A stretch of 35,994 nucleotides of DNA from Candidatus Spechtbacterales bacterium (GTDB lineage: Bacteria > Patescibacteriota > Minisyncoccia > Spechtbacterales > 2-12-FULL-38-22). Where the stretch lies: NCBI GenBank assembly GCA_033721415.1, contig JAWWAH010000003.1, forward strand, positions 1 through 35,994, written 5' to 3'. The position numbers were made by a program, and so were the translations under genes. The notes under the pieces are model-generated. The model worked only from the letters and a program-made list of their open reading frames with translations, was not told the DNA's origin and ran no database searches. Positions 8,864-29,462 of this stretch are shown piece by piece (position 1 is the first letter of the stretch; each line of letters begins with the position of its first letter).

Positions 8864-10048
8864 ATGAAAACAGAATTCACAGAAAAAGACCTTCTTACTC
8901 GTGGAGTTGAAGAGGTTATAGAAGAGAAAAATTTAAAAAAGAAACTAAAAAAAGGCAAAAAGTTGCGTATTAAATTTGGTATAGATCCGACGGCACCCGA
9001 TATTCATCTTGGTCATACTGTTCCGATGTGGAAACTAAGACAATTTCAAGATATGGGGCACACAGCAGTTCTTATAATTGGGGATTATACAGCATCAATA
9101 GGGGATCCTTCAGGAAAAGACAAAACAAGACCCCCACTTACTGAAAAAGAAATCAAAAAAAACTACAAAACTTACGAAAAGCAAGCTTTAAAAATATTAA
9201 GAAAAGATAGATTAGAGGTTCATAAGCAAACAGAGTGGTTTAAAAAGTTTAATTTAAAAGAATTAATTAAATTAACTTCTCAGATATCTGTTGGTCAACT
9301 TTTAAGTCATGAAACATTTAGGGCTCGTTTACGTAAAAATGAACCATTATCTACACACGAACTTTTATATCCATTTCTTCAAGGGTATGATTCCGTTGCA
9401 ATAAAAGCAGATGTAGAATTAGGTGCTGTAGAACAAAAATTTAATCTTTTAGCCGGGAGGATTATACAGAAACAAAACAATATGAATCCTCAAGATGTAA
9501 TCACAACACCATATTTACTAGGTACAGATGGAAAAGAAAAAATGAGTAAGAGTTTGGGAAACTATATAGCCCTTCAAGATAAACCAGAAGATATGTTTGG
9601 AAAAGTTATGTCTATAACTGACGATGAGATAATAAAGTACTTTGAACTTGCTACACCACTACCCACAAAAGAAATAAAAAAACTAAAAAAAGAAAAAATA
9701 ACTGGAAAAACGGCTCGTAATCTTAAAATAAAACTAGCGGAACTAATTACAACTATTTATTGGGGAGAGGAAGAAGCAAAAAAAGCACGCAAAAGATTCG
9801 AAACCCAATTTCAAAAACAAGAAATTCCCAAAGATGTAAAAGAATTCAAAACAAATAAGAAAAAAGTTACAGATGTTTTAGATAAAACTGATCTAACTTC
9901 TTCTAAAAGTGAAGCTAGAAGATTAATTAAACAGGGTGCTGTTTATATTAATGACAAAAGAGTAGAGGATATACACGCAGAAATACCTAAAAAACCATTT
10001 ATTTTAAGAGTTGGTAGAAGAAAAATAATAAAGGTTTCTAAAAAGTAA
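8864..10048 (+). CDS. tyrS: Tyrosine--tRNA ligase
   Basis: GIDPTAPDIHLGH, YPFLQGYD, KMSKS, C-terminal S4 domain (SKSEARRLIKQGAV). Confidence 0.98.
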   Translation: MKTEFTEKDLLTRGVEEVIEEKNLKKKLKKGKKLRIKFGIDPTAPDIHLGHTVPMWKLRQFQDMGHTAVLIIGDYTASIGDPSGKDKTRPPLTEKEIKKNYKTYEKQALKILRKDRLEVHKQTEWFKKFNLKELIKLTSQISVGQLLSHETFRARLRKNEPLSTHELLYPFLQGYDSVAIKADVELGAVEQKFNLLAGRIIQKQNNMNPQDVITTPYLLGTDGKEKMSKSLGNYIALQDKPEDMFGKVMSITDDEIIKYFELATPLPTKEIKKLKKEKITGKTARNLKIKLAELITTIYWGEEEAKKARKRFETQFQKQEIPKDVKEFKTNKKKVTDVLDKTDLTSSKSEARRLIKQGAVYINDKRVEDIHAEIPKKPFILRVGRRKIIKVSKK

Positions 10049-24335: not shown

Positions 24336-25097
24336 ATGAGCAATCAAATAAAAACGCTAGCATCTAAATTAGAACCCCTTGGCTTAAGCGACAAACAAGC
24401 CCGCGTTTATGTCGCTACTTTGTTTTTGGGTTCTGCTCCGGTGCAACAAATAGCAAAACAAGCAGACATTAATCGTCCAACAGCATATGTAATATTAGAG
24501 GAACTTGAAAACATGGGCTTGGTATCTGAGTCTACTGATGCTAAAAAAACAGTTTATATCGCAGAAGATCCAGAAGCGATTACTCGTTGGCTTGAGAAGA
24601 AAGAGATTGAGATAGAAGCAAAGAAGAAAAGTGCAAAAAAATTAATTAGTGACCTAGAGGGTATTAAGAGGGAAGAGGTGTCTCAGGCTCCCATGGTTCG
24701 TTTTTATCGTGGGAAAGAAGGTATAAAGTCTATATTAGCTGAATCTGCAAGAAAATCTAAACCGAAAACAGAGGTTTATGGTTTCACAAACTTGGACGAG
24801 GTAAAGAAATTGTTTCCTGGATATTTCAAAAGCGCACCAGAAAGAAGGCTTCCTAAAGATATTTCAAGCAAGGTTCTATATTCTTCTCTAGAAAAAATAG
24901 ATTTAGAAAACAAAGAAGCCTTACGTCGAGCACGGAGGGTTGATAACCCAATAGAGGCTGATATTAGCATTTACGAAGATAGAGCAACACTTTTAACTTA
25001 TGCAGGAGAAAATTCTTCCGGAATCGTTATAGAGAGTCCAGAAATAGTAAAATCTCTAAGGCAGTTGTTTGAATTAGCCTGGGAAAGCAAAGAATAA
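24336..25097 (+). CDS. TrmB-family transcriptional regulator
   Basis: LGLSDKQARVYVATL..IAKQADINRPTAYVILEELENMGLV wHTH; C-terminal effector-binding domain. Confidence 0.88.
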   Translation: MSNQIKTLASKLEPLGLSDKQARVYVATLFLGSAPVQQIAKQADINRPTAYVILEELENMGLVSESTDAKKTVYIAEDPEAITRWLEKKEIEIEAKKKSAKKLISDLEGIKREEVSQAPMVRFYRGKEGIKSILAESARKSKPKTEVYGFTNLDEVKKLFPGYFKSAPERRLPKDISSKVLYSSLEKIDLENKEALRRARRVDNPIEADISIYEDRATLLTYAGENSSGIVIESPEIVKSLRQLFELAWESKE

Positions 25098-25114
25098 AAA
25101 TAAGTCAATTAATA

Positions 25115-25143
25115 TTGACAAAAATAATATAAAGTGTTAGTAT
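25115..25143 (+). promoter_or_regulatory. Sigma70 promoter, island unit A
   Basis: TTGACA-17bp-TAGTAT with TGn; predicted start near 25150 coincides with the first helix. Confidence 0.8.
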
Positions 25144-25149
25144 ATTTAT

Positions 25150-25520
25150 GCCACACAGAACAAGAGAGAACACTGAAAGTACCTTTCAAAGGTGCTCTAA
25201 GGTTCAGAGTGTGGCGCTCACCGAAAGGACGAAAGATGGGTGGAGGTTAACAATATATTAGGCTAGAAAAATGACACCCTGCTCGGGTATAAAGAGCATC
25301 AACAAGACAGGTGCCACAATCTGATTCTCGGCACCAAACAACTTACAGTGTCCTAAAAGAAAGCCGTGGTGAATTTTTGCAAAAAAAGAGGCAAACATTC
25401 ACTAGGCCAAGATCCAAAAGGACCAACAGCACTTTTTTCCCCGTATACACCAGGTATGCGGGGAATTGTTATTTTAGGACTGGAAACTATATCTATAGCT
25501 GTGGGTATAGTTTCCGGGGC
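25150..25520 (+). ncRNA. Unknown structured ncRNA, unit A (~370 nt)
   Basis: Helices gccacac/gtgtggc (25150/25215), tgctc/gagca, ggtgcc/ggcacc, tggtgaat..tttgc/gcaaa..attcacta, gtcctaaaa/ttttaggac, 12-bp 25437-25465, 17-bp 25480-25517 with + strand G-U pairs; no credible ORF. Confidence 0.7.
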
Positions 25521-25619
25521 AATACAATATTTGTATAAATAATATTACAAAAATATAGCTATAAAATCCCTTAAAATAAAGGAAAGTATGACTAAAAAAC
25601 AATACTCTGTTATTAATAC

Positions 25620-25648
25620 TTGACAAAAAAATATCAATATGCTAATAT
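25620..25648 (+). promoter_or_regulatory. Sigma70 promoter, island unit B
   Basis: TTGACA-17bp-TAATAT with TGn; predicted start near 25655. Confidence 0.8.
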
Positions 25649-25823
25649 AACAGCAAGTTGAAATGAGGCGAGGAAAAATTCTCGCCCAAAAGCAAAGATT
25701 GCTTGGGAGCCATATACTGTTTAATTAAATTAATCAAAACAGAAAAAATGGATTACCCAATCAAAACAATAATGTAAACAGGCGAGAAGGCCTGTCTTTT
25801 TTATGCCTGAATTTCGGCAGGCC

Positions 25824-25948
25824 AACGGTTCCCCGATGGATTCGGGGCTGACGAGCCCAAAGTTTGATCTGTTTGAGGTAGTGCTCATTTAAATAACCTT
25901 CCTCATTTCAACTTTAATAACAGATTAAAGCTACAGGGCGAAACCGTT
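25824..25948 (+). ncRNA. Type III hammerhead ribozyme
   Basis: Stem III aacgg/ccgtt, GUU triplet (cut after 25830), stem I ccccga/tcgggg with loop UGGAU, core CUGACGA (25848-54), stem II gccc/gggc with conserved G10.1-C11.1, GAAA (25940-43). Stem II extended by tttgatctgtt/aacagattaaa. Confidence 0.85.
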
Positions 25949-26164
25949 AAAGAAAAACTAGGGCTTGGGAAACTATAAGTTTTTAATCGCGCCACAAAGC
26001 AATAAAAAAGGCGGACAGGTTATAAAACTTGGGGAGGCTCTCTCCCCGAAGCTCGCGTCTAAGTATATGTGATCAATTTTAATACTAAAGTTCGGACGCG
26101 GGTTATGGGGAGAGAGCAACCGAAGCTCCTCTTTTCATATATAGATATGCCGAAAGGAAAACCA

Positions 26165-26356
26165 ATGGCAAAGAAGGGCCAGGCACAGAAGCACGTTTGC
26201 CACCAGCACCCCTCTGTTCGTACGTTCCAGACACCGACCTACGAACCGGGTGACACGTTCGAGACCGCGAGGGGTAAGTCACTTTCGTTCCGTGCCCGTG
26301 TGGCTCGGCTCAAGCCACAGCCCAGGGGTTACACGAGCAAGGTGAAGCAAGGGTAG
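26165..26356 (+). CDS. Small basic protein (63 aa) embedded in unit B RNA
   Basis: SD aaagga before ATG 26165; MAKKGQAQKHVCHQHPSVRTF...KVKQG; GC-rich codons like the other island ORFs. Confidence 0.7.
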   Translation: MAKKGQAQKHVCHQHPSVRTFQTPTYEPGDTFETARGKSLSFRARVARLKPQPRGYTSKVKQG

Positions 26357-27005
26357 TTCTTCGCCCCTCATCCTTACAAACAAGGGTGAGGGGCAACCCA
26401 ACTTAATATAATATTTCGCACCACGATCTTAGCCGGTAATGCCGCTTGAGATCGCGGTGCGAGCTTAACTGGCGCGACAAAGCCCCAAGCCTGGGCATAA
26501 AAGGTTAGGGGTTCCTCTACCCCGCGATGAAGGACTAGGAGGCCGCCGGATAGGGAGTTCCTTATCCCTGGGACCAAAAGGTGCGGGGAGTAGGAGCCCG
26601 CTATCTTAGTTCACCCTGTTGTCTGCAAGGTCCGCAGGCAGAGGATGTGGTCTTGAGCTCGCACCGCAACAACTTAATGATATATGCAAATAATATCGCA
26701 TATAAGTAGTTGTTCTTTTTAATCCCGGCTATCATACGATAGCCGGCCCGACCCAAGATTACTATGCTAAGCGTAGTTATAGCGACTTTGGGCCGGGTGC
26801 AACATCAAAACAGGAGAGAACACCTTGGAGCAGTTCATTAGTTAGCAAAAACAACCCTTTCCTTCTGTGTGAAGGGGAGGGGAACTGGGTTCTAGGTTCT
26901 AGTTTATAATTTTGCTAGGTTTGTTACCTACCTTTCTAGACAAAGGCAACACTAAAACAAAAATAAACAAACCATTAAAAAGTGTCAAAAACACCGAACA
27001 AACCC

Positions 27006-27034
27006 TTGACAAGTAAATAATAATATACTATAAT
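27006..27034 (+). promoter_or_regulatory. Perfect consensus sigma70 promoter, island unit C
   Basis: TTGACA-17bp-TATAAT with A-rich upstream sequence. Confidence 0.9.
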
Positions 27035-27084
27035 ATAGGGACTAACAGTTAGTAATAAACTGTTTAAAGTTCTTAACACTGTAC

Positions 27085-27183
27085 TTTCGAGCATCGAGAA
27101 GGAGAGGGCGGGCATAAAATACTATATAGGCTCTTGACCCTCTCATTCTCGGTGTTCGAAAACTCATTCCTAAAGGAGGTGAG
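27085..27183 (+). promoter_or_regulatory. Structured 5' leader of unit C
   Basis: 16-bp helix 27085-100/27146-61 with G-U pairs plus gagaggg/ccctctc; hairpin ctcattcc/ggaggtgag sequesters the SD. Confidence 0.7.
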
Positions 27184-27186
27184 AAG

Positions 27187-27390
27187 ATGGTAGCAAGCAT
27201 CAAGCCAAGGTGCCTTTGTGGCGCCGAGGTTGGCTTCAAGGGAGACCGTTGCATCATGTGCGGAACCGACGAGGAGAACATCCAGATCGATCTGTACGAG
27301 ATCCTCGATTCGCCCCAGCCAACCACTGGGTTCTCGATTGTCCCAGACATCGAGTTCCCAACATCCGAGGCTTTGGAGCTCGGCCTTTGA
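27187..27390 (+). CDS. Small Zn-ribbon protein with acidic tail (67 aa)
   Basis: SD aaggaggtga; CLC..CIMC motif; Asp/Glu-rich C-terminus. Confidence 0.75.
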   Translation: MVASIKPRCLCGAEVGFKGDRCIMCGTDEENIQIDLYEILDSPQPTTGFSIVPDIEFPTSEALELGL

Positions 27391-27575
27391 AACAGGCTCC
27401 ATCAAGACTTTCTTACCCCTAGGGTGAGGCCCGGAAACAACCGAGGAAAAATTTAGTCTATCAGCAGGCTATCAAGCCCATTCGGGCAGCTGAGGGCACA
27501 AAGCACTTTGTGCCCTTCCTTCTAAGGTCTCGACTACTCGAGGTTTTAGAAGGGAGAGAAACCCTTCCTAAAGAA
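27391..27575 (+). ncRNA. Structured intercistronic RNA
   Basis: Consecutive helices ttaccc/gggtga, tcagc/gctga enclosing gccc/gggc, agggcacaaa/tttgtgccct, ccttctaa..tcga/tcga..ttagaagg. Confidence 0.55.
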
Positions 27576-27678
27576 GGCCAAGCGGCGAAGTCTGGTCGCA
27601 TCGTGGGGTATACACCTTCGCTCTGTATATTCTCAAAACGTGTCAAAAGCGTTTCGGGTTCAAATCCCGGCTTGGCCA
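27576..27678 (+). tRNA. tRNA-like element (class II shape) with non-canonical, enlarged anticodon arm; identity unassignable
   Basis: Acceptor ggccaag/cttggcc + A, D-loop with GG (agtctggt), long variable arm aaacgt/gcgttt, T arm tcggg-TTCAAAT-cccgg; anticodon region ggggtataca-ccttcgctc-tgtatattct. Confidence 0.7.
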
Positions 27679-27718
27679 CGAACAGTACCTATCAATCACA
27701 CACAAAAGGAGGGCTCAC

Positions 27719-28165
27719 ATGAGCCGCCGATTCAAGAAGGGCCCGACACTCGAGGCGATCGAGGAGCTCGGGATCACCCGGCGCACAAAGCCGGGCGAGG
27801 TCGATCCTGCGACCTTCATCAAGGGGGCGGCTCTCCTGTGGCAGTCCGAGTTCGCTTGGGCTGTCGACAACGAGGAGACCCGTTGGGCGTATCGAGAACT
27901 TGAGCGCCTTCTGTACGCGGCTGTTTCAGCCACGAGTCAGGACGAGCTCACAGAGGCCATCAAGCCGAAGCACAGCCTCGCTGCTCTGCGGTGCGCCACC
28001 TCGCGCATCAACAAGGCTGAGGTTAATGTTCTCGAGGAAGAGGCTCGTCGTGAAGCCTCTTCCAACAACTCTTCTCAGTCTCTTCGTGAGTCCCGCGCCC
28101 GCAAGGAGCGCAAGCGTGCTCGCGATCGCGAGATCCGTGCCCGCATGAAGGGCAAGAGCCAGTAG
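27719..28165 (+). CDS. Hypothetical helical protein with Arg-rich C-terminus (148 aa)
   Basis: SD aaggaggg; ends RESRARKERKRARDREIRARMKGKSQ; consistent codon bias. Confidence 0.8.
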   Translation: MSRRFKKGPTLEAIEELGITRRTKPGEVDPATFIKGAALLWQSEFAWAVDNEETRWAYRELERLLYAAVSATSQDELTEAIKPKHSLAALRCATSRINKAEVNVLEEEARREASSNNSSQSLRESRARKERKRARDREIRARMKGKSQ

Positions 28166-28241
28166 ACCTTCGGGGGCAGGCCGTGAAGACACCAGCCTGC
28201 CCCTGACCAACCATAAGCGAAACCCTTGAAAGGGGGTGAAT

Positions 28242-28418
28242 ATGTCGAAGAAGGTCGAAGCTAAGGAGTTCGAGATCGTAAAGACGATCTCGACGGGACG
28301 CCACCGCCGCACCGAGACCGCTCAGGTCGTTGCGCGCATCAATGGTCGTCGCGTCACGCGCCATGTCCGAAAGGACAACGGTGTGTGGAAGGACCTCCAA
28401 GGGAACACCTACAGCTGA
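28242..28418 (+). CDS. Small basic protein (58 aa)
   Basis: SD aagggggtga before ATG 28242; MSKKVEAKEFEIVKTISTGRHRRTETAQVVARINGRRVTRHVRKDNGVWKDLQGNTYS. Confidence 0.75.
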   Translation: MSKKVEAKEFEIVKTISTGRHRRTETAQVVARINGRRVTRHVRKDNGVWKDLQGNTYS

Positions 28419-28770
28419 AAAGCTGATTAGGTATCCTGGCGCGGAGCTCCGAAAAGCCGCGCAAAAACAAGGAGCAAAAGTTCCGGTCGTATAAAACACG
28501 AAGAAGGGCCGGAAAGGCGAAAAAGGGAGCGCCTAAAAAATCTCTCCAGGGAACGCAGCACTCGCGTTCCCGCTCTTACAGTATTCTCGAAGATTTCGAG
28601 GATAGCGTAGGCGCAGAAATGGAAATAAAATGCTAAAGCGAGCATTTGGAAGACTGTTTGCTTTTGCTGGAATCATGGCAATGGCAAACATGGAAGCCAA
28701 CGAATGGAAAAACAAGCACCTATAATAAATACCCGCCACAAGCTACATAAAGGCTTTTTGGCGGGTATTA
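28412..28770 (+). ncRNA. Structured 3' RNA domain of unit C with two candidate H-type pseudoknots and a terminal hairpin
   Basis: cagct-GAAA-agctg; PK 28439-75; PK 28515-46; gggaacgc/gcgttccc; tattctcgaa/ttcgaggata; final aatacccgcca/tggcgggtatt (28728-69). Confidence 0.6.
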
Positions 28771-28820
28771 AAAATTAATAAACATTATACAAGATAAAAA
28801 ACATATAATATAGATATCTC

Positions 28821-28855
28821 TTGAAAAATAGTGTGCCATATGGCATACTATTTTT
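28821..28855 (+). promoter_or_regulatory. Probable promoter covered by a 32-bp near-perfect palindrome
   Basis: TTGAAA-17bp-CATACT with TGn; aaaaatagtgtgccat|atggcatactattttt (one mismatch). Confidence 0.6.
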
Positions 28856-28878
28856 AGTTATTTTAAAGGAGGTGGTAC

Positions 28879-29373
28879 TTGAACATCGATCCAAATCGTC
28901 TTTTCAACGGAAAGTTGATACTGGCCAACAATAAAGAAATTCCAAATTATATTACTCATGATGAAATAATAGCGATTACCTTTGCGTTTCTTAAAGATAA
29001 AGGATATCCATTAAGTAATAGTTTGCGTCAGTTATCTATATTTTTTATTCCTGAAACTCGATATGGAAAAGATGGAATAGATCGTTTTTTACCAAAAATA
29101 TTTAAGTGGCGCACAAGAGACAGCACTAGTGGGAATTATCTTTCTTTAGCACTTAGCATAAAACTATTTGTACCACATCTACAGAATAGAAGAGATTTTA
29201 TAAAAACATTATTGCATGAATTAGATCACGTAGTCTGGTTTTTAGAGCATTGCGGCAGGTTTGATCGCTCAAAAAGATATAGAGCAAGACCGCACGAAAA
29301 GCGTGCGCGAAAAACTTCTCGCAAATGGTACAGAAAAGCAAAAAAGATAGCAAGCAGAAATAAGCCACAGTAA
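28879..29373 (+). CDS. Basic HExxH zinc metallopeptidase-like protein (SprT/ImmA-like zincin)
   Basis: SD aaaggaggtgg + TTG; TLLHELDH...PHEKRAR. Confidence 0.75.
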   Translation: MNIDPNRLFNGKLILANNKEIPNYITHDEIIAITFAFLKDKGYPLSNSLRQLSIFFIPETRYGKDGIDRFLPKIFKWRTRDSTSGNYLSLALSIKLFVPHLQNRRDFIKTLLHELDHVVWFLEHCGRFDRSKRYRARPHEKRARKTSRKWYRKAKKIASRNKPQ

Positions 29374-29382
29374 ATAGAATAT

Positions 29383-29409
29383 AAAGCATGTCGCATGACA
29401 TGCTTTTTT
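29383..29409 (+). terminator. Intrinsic terminator
   Basis: aaagcatgtc-gcat-gacatgctttttt. Confidence 0.8.
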
Positions 29410-29462
29410 AAATATTGCTAAAATGTTAAAATATACTCAATTAATATAAAAAATATTCAGCT

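Follow-up and report, generated by a model that had tools for sequence, protein, structure and literature searches.

A predicted type III hammerhead ribozyme in a Patescibacteria contig carries a long stem II arm complementary to the predicted 5' end of its transcript

Hammerhead ribozymes are common, and their roles in bacteria are still largely guesswork. The discontinuous hammerheads in the 3' untranslated region (3'UTR) of mammalian CLEC2 messenger RNAs (mRNAs) accommodate an insertion of hundreds of nucleotides (nt) in stem I, and the two-piece (permuted) transfer-messenger RNA (tmRNA) is one of several RNAs that are held together by base pairing after processing. Here we describe a hammerhead in contig JAWWAH010000003.1 of the Candidatus Spechtbacterales assembly GCA_033721415.1. 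The whole contig, 35,994 bases, was analysed and is called the window; the genome has 928,048 bases in 65 contigs, with 37.8% G+C. Stem II of this hammerhead contains a 77-nt insert, part of which is perfectly complementary to nt 1-14 of the predicted transcript; we call this pairing the clamp, its 5' segment arm A and its segment within stem II arm B. As in the CLEC2 hammerheads, the core appears to tolerate a long insertion in a peripheral helix; unlike theirs, the insert in the window is 77 nt, sits in stem II and could pair with the predicted 5' end of the RNA that carries it. The likeness to two-piece tmRNA is that the products in the window would stay non-covalently joined if the clamp forms; there is no homology, however, and the two-piece state in the window is a prediction.

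In the sections of Perreault et al. (2011, PMC3088659) drawn on here, prophage hammerheads flank genes, and processing of long transcripts is proposed for them; the examples given in those sections include prophage and Legionella contexts, with type II described as common in eubacteria. The subfamily to which the window copy belongs resembles these gene-flanking bacterial and prophage hammerheads in lying between genes, in a block of small orphan genes, and in one relative (L044) a pair of copies flanks a single open reading frame (ORF); it differs in its hosts, those in the same sections of that paper being other bacteria and ours being Patescibacteria. Our literature search returned no report of a hammerhead ribozyme for Saccharibacteria, with the reservation that the supplementary lists of PMC3088659 may include TM7/Patescibacteria examples. 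By title and abstract, the papers retrieved for hammerhead and Patescibacteria together were unrelated, and none of those listed (10 of 11) on self-cleaving hammerheads with tmRNA in bacteria dealt with such an arrangement. Bacterial hammerheads as such are well known; going by sequence, what is novel here is the 77-nt stem II arm that perfectly matches the RNA's own predicted 5' end.

The hammerhead core and its relatives in Patescibacteria

The initial annotation of this stretch had listed a complete type III core with three stems, and every element it listed was found (Table 1). All of the core nucleotides (C3 U4 G5 A6 N7 G8 A9 and G12 A13 A14) are present, the A15.1-U16.1 pair is formed by A25943 and U25829, and position 17 is U25830, a non-G. 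Stems I and II are closed and stem III is open, with 6, 4 (+17) and 6 base pairs (bp), respectively. The minimum-energy fold of 25820-25952 (RNAfold) is the three-way junction, at -38.6 kcal/mol (z = -3.0), and none of 200 shuffles of this segment was as stable. The junction is found again in the minimum-energy fold of the 366-nt transcript 25655-26020, although stem III and the basal part of stem II are missing from the centroid structure of this longer RNA.

We scanned both strands of the genome (928,048 bases) with a descriptor that called for CUGANGA, GAAA, U16.1, any base but G at position 17 and stems no shorter than 4 bp, and that allowed up to 110 nt in stem II. The window site was the sole match. 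Eighty simulated genomes (first-order Markov) gave a mean of 0.15 matches, none of the 80 with one as good as 6/4/6 bp. Relaxing the descriptor to 3-bp stems added 10 weak matches in the genome, most with 3-4 bp per stem.

The hammerhead lies on the plus strand, 0.7 kilobases (kb) downstream of a gene for a TrmB-like regulator. A search of species-representative genomes with the TrmB-like protein gave 11 loci, 7 of them 45-51% identical. At three of these seven (L009, L010 and L012) the descriptor finds the same hammerhead downstream of the TrmB-like gene, on the same strand and 1.1-1.5 kb away; the other four (L008, L011, L013 and L018) lack one, the best score being 12.7 bits (expectation value, E, of 0.71) in L008. 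The L009 copy scores 53.4 bits with the Rfam hammerhead model RF00008, above its cut-off of 48.5.

Searches were also made with two models. The model R1, made from the window hammerhead alone with its insert, matched a compact hammerhead in L010 (E = 0.013). It had no match in 7 other genomes of the family, and in 150 other genomes of the class it gave just two, with E of about 0.5, one of which (L006) has no hammerhead core. The model R2 was built from four sequences, those of the window, L009, L010 and L012. It matched in at least 2 of 150 other genomes of the class, in at least 3 of 150 other genomes of the phylum, and in at least 10 of 31 other genomes of the family of L010, with three copies in one genome; some 21 first-look candidates were scored per genome in these large searches, hence the counts are lower bounds. 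R2 found one copy each in the genomes of L009, L010 and L012, plus a weak second match in that of L012 (19.4 bits, E = 0.03), and none in the genomes of L018 and L011. At the DNA level, similarity was limited to short matches: those of a 3.2-kb region in 60 relatives and of a 531-nt region in 15 genomes of the order were 27-46 nt long and promoter-like or otherwise short, and blastn of 25098-29460 against the related loci gave only matches of 18-37 nt.

The family set now comprises 21 copies from 17 sources, namely the window copy and 20 others in Saccharibacteria and other Patescibacteria. Every core position, CUGANGA included, is kept in all 21 aligned sequences, as are the pairs G10.1-C11.1 and U16.1-A15.1. 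Standard pairs make up 96.6% of the 320 alignment cells, two-sided changes are seen at 14 of the 16 stem pairs, and all 6 pairs of stem I are compensated. The covariation score was 0.749, compared with 0.202 in shuffles, and was reached by none of 500; when the pairing partner was slid by 1-3 columns, pairing dropped to 35-49%. Fitting the alignment to the model biases it towards the structure; even so, the margins are wide. Relative to the L009 type, the window copy differs at three stem I pairs, all fully compensated, and at one pair of stem II.

From these comparisons of sequence, a chance motif is excluded and the window site is a true member of a real hammerhead subfamily. The type III assignment made in the initial annotation is strongly supported by the full core, the covarying set of 21 sequences, and the three copies downstream of the same gene in relatives. 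The work defines a covarying type III subfamily in Patescibacteria, whose genomes are below 1 Mb; any RNA element kept in such genomes deserves notice. Members of the subfamily are associated with blocks of small orphan genes; one adjoins the tmRNA gene in L010, and a pair of copies flanks one gene in L044. The window copy amounts to a natural experiment, having the core and genomic position of its relatives plus the 77-nt arm.

The stem II insert and its complementarity to the leader

The claim that stem II is unusually long holds in comparison with the family. The insert (25859-25935) takes the place of a shorter loop: 15 of the 20 other copies have 4 nt there (AAAA or GAAA), and five have 10-19 nt. 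The R2 alignment places the insert inside the loop, between AAA and A. Directly above the basal 4 bp is an internal loop, with A25859 and A25860 on one side and A25933, C25934 and A25935 on the other, and above this are helices of 5, 8, 5 and 2 bp and a 13-nt bulge (25906-18). The basal 4 bp and the flanking unpaired A's are kept, and catalysis should therefore survive the insert.

We considered whether the insert is a repeated mobile element and rejected this, as it occurs once in the genome. A pattern scan for hammerheads with a stem II insert of 62-92 nt gave no matches in viral contigs. Three metagenome matches to the pattern were also rejected; they are unrelated G+C-rich type II contigs, in which the downstream GAAAC is coincidental. 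These three contigs, L032, L033 and L034, carry their type II hammerheads between short ORFs, and two of them are nearly identical to part of L032. L032 itself has two type II hammerheads 400 nt apart (approximately 2150-2210 and 2558-2615), an arrangement typical of phage-like operons.

A transcription start near A25655 is predicted from the promoter-like site upstream of the hammerhead, and it is at this position that arm A begins. The perfect complementarity between the two arms, first pointed out in the initial annotation, is real, at 14 of 14 positions, and non-random: a complement of at least 14 nt to the 250 nt upstream appeared in 1 of 5000 shuffles of the insert. No other place in the genome, the insert itself excepted, matches the insert as well as arm A does. 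The clamp duplex has an energy of -18.8 kcal/mol. Shuffles scored by duplex energy between leader and insert reached the observed value in 2 of 500 cases, a poor control, since huge interior loops were allowed. In the whole genome there are 39 perfect inverted repeats of at least 14 nt with arms 20-400 nt apart, most of which are local hairpins; the arms are more than 100 nt apart in about 10 of them.

In the ribozyme ensemble, 25901-05 has a local partner in 25874-78, and the unpaired fraction of 25906-14 is 93% or more. When the leader is folded alone, the last two G of arm A belong to the next hairpin and the rest of the arm is partly paired. A suggestion that the clamp gates cleavage fared less well than the complementarity itself. 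Gating is unlikely, because no more than the top 5 bp of stem II would give way to the clamp: it competes with the apical helix 25874-78 / 25901-05 alone, and the pair list shows that 17 stem II pairs and the core would be left untouched by its formation.

The complementarity extends beyond the predicted transcript. A second upstream segment, 25603-16, is complementary at 13 of 14 positions to 25914-27, which adjoins arm B (duplex energy, -11.0 kcal/mol), and its position is before the predicted start. The unbroken 27 nt of 25901-27 thus mirror two upstream pieces with exactly the 38-nt promoter between them, a pattern that favours either a DNA-level fold-back origin or an older start further upstream. 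A further helix of 13 bp (25792-804 / 26002-14) had been proposed to enclose the ribozyme. This helix does exist in the minimum-energy fold of 25655-26020, but it is AU-rich and unremarkable; formed by a U-tract and an A-tract of low complexity, with two G-U pairs (-11.9 kcal/mol), it is weak evidence.

Public runs were compared with the locus at 80% likeness. One run, X1, contains 94% of the sampled words of 25100-28800 and is probably the source; a soil run, X2, contains 8%. No RNA run was among those listed for the region, a result with no bearing on expression. X2 has a 227-nt contig identical to 25686-25912, and contigs of a diverged relative that align in islands, namely 25639-25671/2, 25875/85-25915/6, 26419-68, 26642-68, and from 26927 onward. 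The first two islands span both clamp arms, and their flanks are not aligned at 80%. The 30-letter loose end after 25916 ends in a variant of the 3' strand of stem II followed by GGGCG, and the loose end before 25639 has a TTGACA at the same spacing as in the window. The first two islands are at most a hint of constraint on both clamp arms.

Proposed processing and alternative readings

We propose, with a probability of roughly 0.7, that the site is an active type III processing ribozyme of a subfamily with a scattered distribution in Saccharibacteria and other Patescibacteria. Plus-strand read-through transcripts from the promoter at 25620, or from upstream, would carry the ribozyme, which would fold during transcription in the leader of the G+C-rich block of small orphan genes and cut itself between U25830 and C25831. 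This would free a leader piece of about 176 nt (25655-25830), ending in a 2',3'-cyclic phosphate, from the small-ORF RNA, and the downstream RNA would begin with a 5'-OH inside the stem I hairpin. The gene-flanking pair in L044 and the orphan-gene context match this transcript-processing model. The long-range clamp helix would tie the 5' end to the ribozyme arm, burying that end and keeping the cleavage products annealed; three helices might join the pieces, namely the 6 bp of stem III, the 14 bp of the clamp and the 13 bp of the weak outer helix. A two-piece RNA arising from clamp plus cleavage is possible. That the clamp is a selected RNA function we regard as doubtful. Unlikely, in our estimate, is the stronger version in which the stem II arm is a selected docking module that captures the triphosphate 5' end and yields a programmed two-piece RNA with both 5' ends buried. 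If the pairing is functional, a peripheral helix of a ribozyme has been recruited to organise its cleavage products. A docking module, if true, would be a non-covalent, ribozyme-built RNA assembly in an ultrasmall epibiotic bacterium, and might make the mRNAs of the small-gene block more stable or link their fate to that of the leader.

Several observations weigh against an active ribozyme with a functional clamp. The site resembles RF00008 (clan CL00010) in its 11-nt core, in A15.1-U16.1, G10.1-C11.1 and the non-G at position 17, and in having stems I and II closed and stem III open; it differs in that the copy goes unscored by that model, in having a 77-nt arm for a 4-nt loop, and in a loop I of 5 nt rather than the 6 nt of its subfamily. 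Rfam at gathering thresholds gave no matches in the whole window, and 25500-26250 searched with E up to 10 gave 6 unrelated weak matches and no hammerhead. A check against the Rfam hammerhead models had been suggested for the site, and it came out negative: RF00008 has no match in the window or in the whole genome, its gathering threshold of 48.5 bits not being reached. We attribute the miss to the 77-nt insert in stem II; nonetheless it stays a miss. When R2 treats the insert as an insertion, the window copy scores 67.5 bits (E = 4e-17). A hammerhead of type II was considered for the site and rejected, as stem II is not open and the topology is that of type III; RF02276 (type II) gave a partial match of 12.4 bits in the genome search (E = 6.9, 25775-25861).

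Further points on the same side concern the periphery of the ribozyme, its leader and the clamp. Position 17 is U (a GUU triplet), which is allowed but is found in only 3 of the 21 family sequences. A contact between loops I and II cannot be assumed for the window copy, because loop I (UGGAU) is 1 nt shorter than the UGUGUG-like, 6-nt loop of the relatives and because an internal loop stands where the stem II loop would be: of the relatives' A-rich loop there survives only AA / ACA, at a distance of 4 bp from the core. Between the ribozyme and the only nearby promoter stands a terminator-like hairpin followed by a U-run, so that RNAs started from the 25620 promoter may for the most part end before they reach the ribozyme. 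None of the 20 other family members has the clamp. For the five other extended stem II loops, no significant long-range partner was found within 400 nt, the observed values being reached by 338-985 of 1000 shuffles (one of the five loops was parsed badly). The clamp is without covariation support, because no aligned relative carries the insert. As for the diverged relative in X2, the letters between its islands are unread, and the 5' half of the ribozyme may even be missing there.

The alternatives divide over the clamp, the leader and the ribozyme itself. It is quite possible, if short of probable, that the ribozyme is real and the clamp an unselected relic of a recent inverted duplication near the promoter, by fold-back or template switch. 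The mirror at 25901-27 is the reverse complement of 25603-16 (13/14) as well as of arm A (14/14), and the former precedes the predicted start and so would lie outside the RNA; the insert is unique to the window copy among the 21, no long-range partner being found for the other extended loops, and a perfect 14-mer fits a young event. This origin has to contend with a likeness that is limited to 27 nt, the rest of the insert having no match elsewhere in the genome, with a promoter that must then have arisen, or been inserted, later between the two pieces, and with the X2 relative, which aligns over both arms and not over their flanks, although arm A is perhaps constrained as initial transcribed sequence. 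If the pairing is not functional, the window offers a clean case of a fold-back duplication decorating a ribozyme stem without destroying it. The two arms might instead be DNA inverted repeats bounding an invertible or excisable 260-bp segment (25655-25914), which contains the terminator and the 5' half of the ribozyme and whose recombination would switch the ribozyme on or off. Perfect repeats with arms more than 100 nt apart are indeed rare in this genome, and some X2 contigs join about 25671/2 to about 25875/85, but those joints are same-strand skips with unread letters between, not inversions; no strand-changing joint was reported in run X1, and the few neighbouring genes scanned with Pfam (TrmB-like, weakly SprT-like and HolA) include no recombinase. 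We consider such a switch very improbable.

The leader could also be a unit of its own: transcription from the 25620 promoter would end mostly at the terminator, the RNA of some 150 nt serving as an attenuator or a small RNA, with the ribozyme present only in read-through; the 5' end of the free small RNA could then pair in trans with the stem II arm. The terminator-like hairpin and its U-run at 25778-25804 speak for this. Moreover, the first leader hairpin and the terminator stem (25781-86) share the word GGCGAG, so CUCGCC at 25681-86 could pair with either and might act as an antiterminator, in what would be an attenuator-like layout of hairpin, antiterminator and terminator. The leaders of L009, L012 and L018 have no terminator, and that of L010 has a GC-rich hairpin with no T-run after it, so the window leader is a local novelty. 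Rfam gave no riboswitch or leader family in the window, however, and upon read-through cis pairing would be kinetically favoured over trans; a separate leader of this kind strikes us as distinctly unlikely. That the hammerhead is inactive or decaying, given its stem II insertion, short loop I and U at position 17, is improbable. In one ribozyme tested in the cited sections of PMC3088659, activity fell by orders of magnitude when as little as 1-2 bp was added to either of stems I and II or when the loop-loop contact was shifted, and the window copy is the lowest-scoring of the four copies at the conserved position (67.5 bits by R2, compared with 82-90 in the other three). Against decay, the 11 core positions, G10.1-C11.1, A15.1-U16.1 and all 16 stem pairs are intact, the three stem I differences are fully compensated, as would not be expected of a relic, and the insert preserves the 4-bp basal stem with its flanking A's.

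The locus, gene blocks of relatives and further elements

Table 1. Positions of the hammerhead, its parts and neighbouring features in the window
Feature	Position	Strand	Description
TrmB-like regulator gene	24336-25097		Pfam TrmB, E = 4e-13
First promoter-like site	25115-43		directly after TrmB-like gene
Structured stretch closed by terminator-like hairpin	hairpin 25437-65		
Second upstream segment	25603-25616	+	13/14 complementary to 25914-27, adjoins arm B
Sigma-70-like promoter	25620-25648	+	TTGACA 25620-25, 17-nt spacer with TG, TAATAT 25643-48; 10/12 hexamer matches
Clamp arm A	25655-25668	+	AAGUUGAAAUGAGG, first 14 nt of predicted transcript
Leader hairpin	25667-25686	+	GGCGAGG-loop-(C)CUCGCC; minimum-energy folds
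Terminator-like hairpin	25778-25804	+	ACAGGC-GAGAAG-GCCUGU, then CUUUUUUAU; between promoter and ribozyme
Type III hammerhead, complete	25824-25948	+	predicted cut between U25830 and C25831
Stem III	25824-29 / 25943-48	+	6 bp; minimum-energy fold, pair list
Cleavage triplet	G25828 U25829 U25830	+	U25830 is position 17
Stem I	25831-36 / 25842-47	+	CCCCGA / UCGGGG, 6 bp, loop UGGAU
Catalytic core strand CUGACGA	25848-54	+	positions C3 to A9
Stem II, whole	25855-25939	+	basal 4 bp, internal loop, irregular extended helix 25861-78 / 25901-32
Stem II, basal part	25855-58 / 25936-39	+	GCCC/GGGC, 4 bp; encloses 77 nt
Clamp arm B	25901-25914	+	CCUCAUUUCAACUU, apical part of stem II
Core GAAA	25940-43	+	A25943 pairs with U25829
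A-rich segment	26002-26014	+	can pair with U-tract 25792-25804, 13 bp
G+C-rich block	26030-28750	+	47-58% G+C, genome 37.8%
Long hairpin	26037-26117	+	23-nt arms, 83% complementary
Four short ORFs	26165-26356, 27187-27390, 27719-28165, 28242-28418	+	behind Shine-Dalgarno-like words
Weakly SprT-like gene	28879-29373		weak Pfam match

The interval between the TrmB-like and the SprT-like gene is about 3.7 kb and has no long ORFs. After the promoter at 25620-48 come, in order, the leader of about 150 nt with its terminator-like hairpin, the hammerhead, the long hairpin and the G+C-rich block. We asked whether this block hides a tmRNA or a ribonuclease P (RNase P) RNA; both were rejected, as both are found elsewhere in the genome, an ordinary one-piece tmRNA gene (141.5 bits) on contig C22 and the RNase P RNA on contig C2.

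The arrangement recurs in relatives. In L009, L010, L012 and L018 the TrmB-like gene is followed by a promoter, a structured RNA of 350-400 nt with a terminator, a second promoter and G+C-rich small ORFs; these blocks hold analogous small ORFs in the same place, though different genes, and the hammerheads come after one or two of them. A tmRNA gene follows the TrmB-like gene and its small-ORF block on the same strand in L010 (10065-10421), L018 (10740-11088) and L011 (4758-5112). The L010 hammerhead (9848-9894) is 170 nt upstream of the tmRNA gene and, to judge by this position, may help in releasing the tmRNA precursor. In L044, two hammerheads, 1501-1567 and 2131-2189, both on the minus strand, flank a single acidic ORF of 112 amino acids (aa) with a GH..GHICA motif that is common to ORFs of L009 and L012. 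A neighbouring 128-aa ORF in L044 matches the phage family phrog_30542, a label without function (E = 1.5e-22); the other small proteins scanned in relatives gave no Pfam or PHROG family.

The structured stretch after the TrmB-like gene lies at 25144-25480 in the window, 1328-1750 in L009, 1638-2050 in L012, 8808-9220 in L018 and 8802-9180 in L010, and in each genome consists of a promoter, 330-420 nt of non-coding sequence and a terminator. L009, L012 and L018 have a common GGGCGCAACA...ACCCGAAAGGGGA motif in it, with which the window's version aligns poorly. It matches no Rfam family, is not RNase P RNA, and may be an undescribed Saccharibacteria RNA. Structured non-coding units are also repeated at the hammerhead-bearing loci of two other members of the class: one of about 100 nt occurs twice in L031 (4040-4140 and 5225-5320), upstream of the hammerhead, and one of about 120 nt is repeated in L030 (near 4810 and 6870), 2 kb apart.

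The G+C-rich block of the window has long structured spacers and a strong internal promoter-like site (TTGACA-17-TATAAT) near 27005-27033. The loop word AAUUUUAAUAC of its long hairpin also follows the hammerhead in L010. A protein search with the 148-aa ORF returned only itself; PHROG had no family for the four small ORFs, and Pfam had none for the three short ORFs scanned. In a phage collection, neither 25640-28760 as DNA nor the 148-aa ORF by tblastn had a match, and Rfam on 26000-28800 with E up to 0.5 gave no hammerhead and only sub-threshold noise. ARAGORN called a transfer RNA (tRNA) for threonine on the minus strand at 27739-27823 (85 nt, anticodon TGT at position 37), inside the 148-aa ORF; this is probably a false call, and the Rfam tRNA model does not support it.

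Two further elements of the block were observed. A long-range inverted repeat, 26454-26468 / 26653-26667 (15 nt, 93% complementary, 184 nt apart), has both of its arms among the few islands kept by the X2 relative, which suggests a conserved long-range RNA helix within the block. On the plus strand at 27576-27677 is a tRNA-like element with an acceptor stem of 8-9 bp, a perfect T-arm (GGGUUCAAAUCCCG) and an over-long middle. ARAGORN makes no call there and Rfam gives a weak tRNA-Sec match below threshold (22.1 bits, E = 0.34). The element is kept by the diverged relative in X2 (27593-27679), and X1 has a second variant of 27645-27698.

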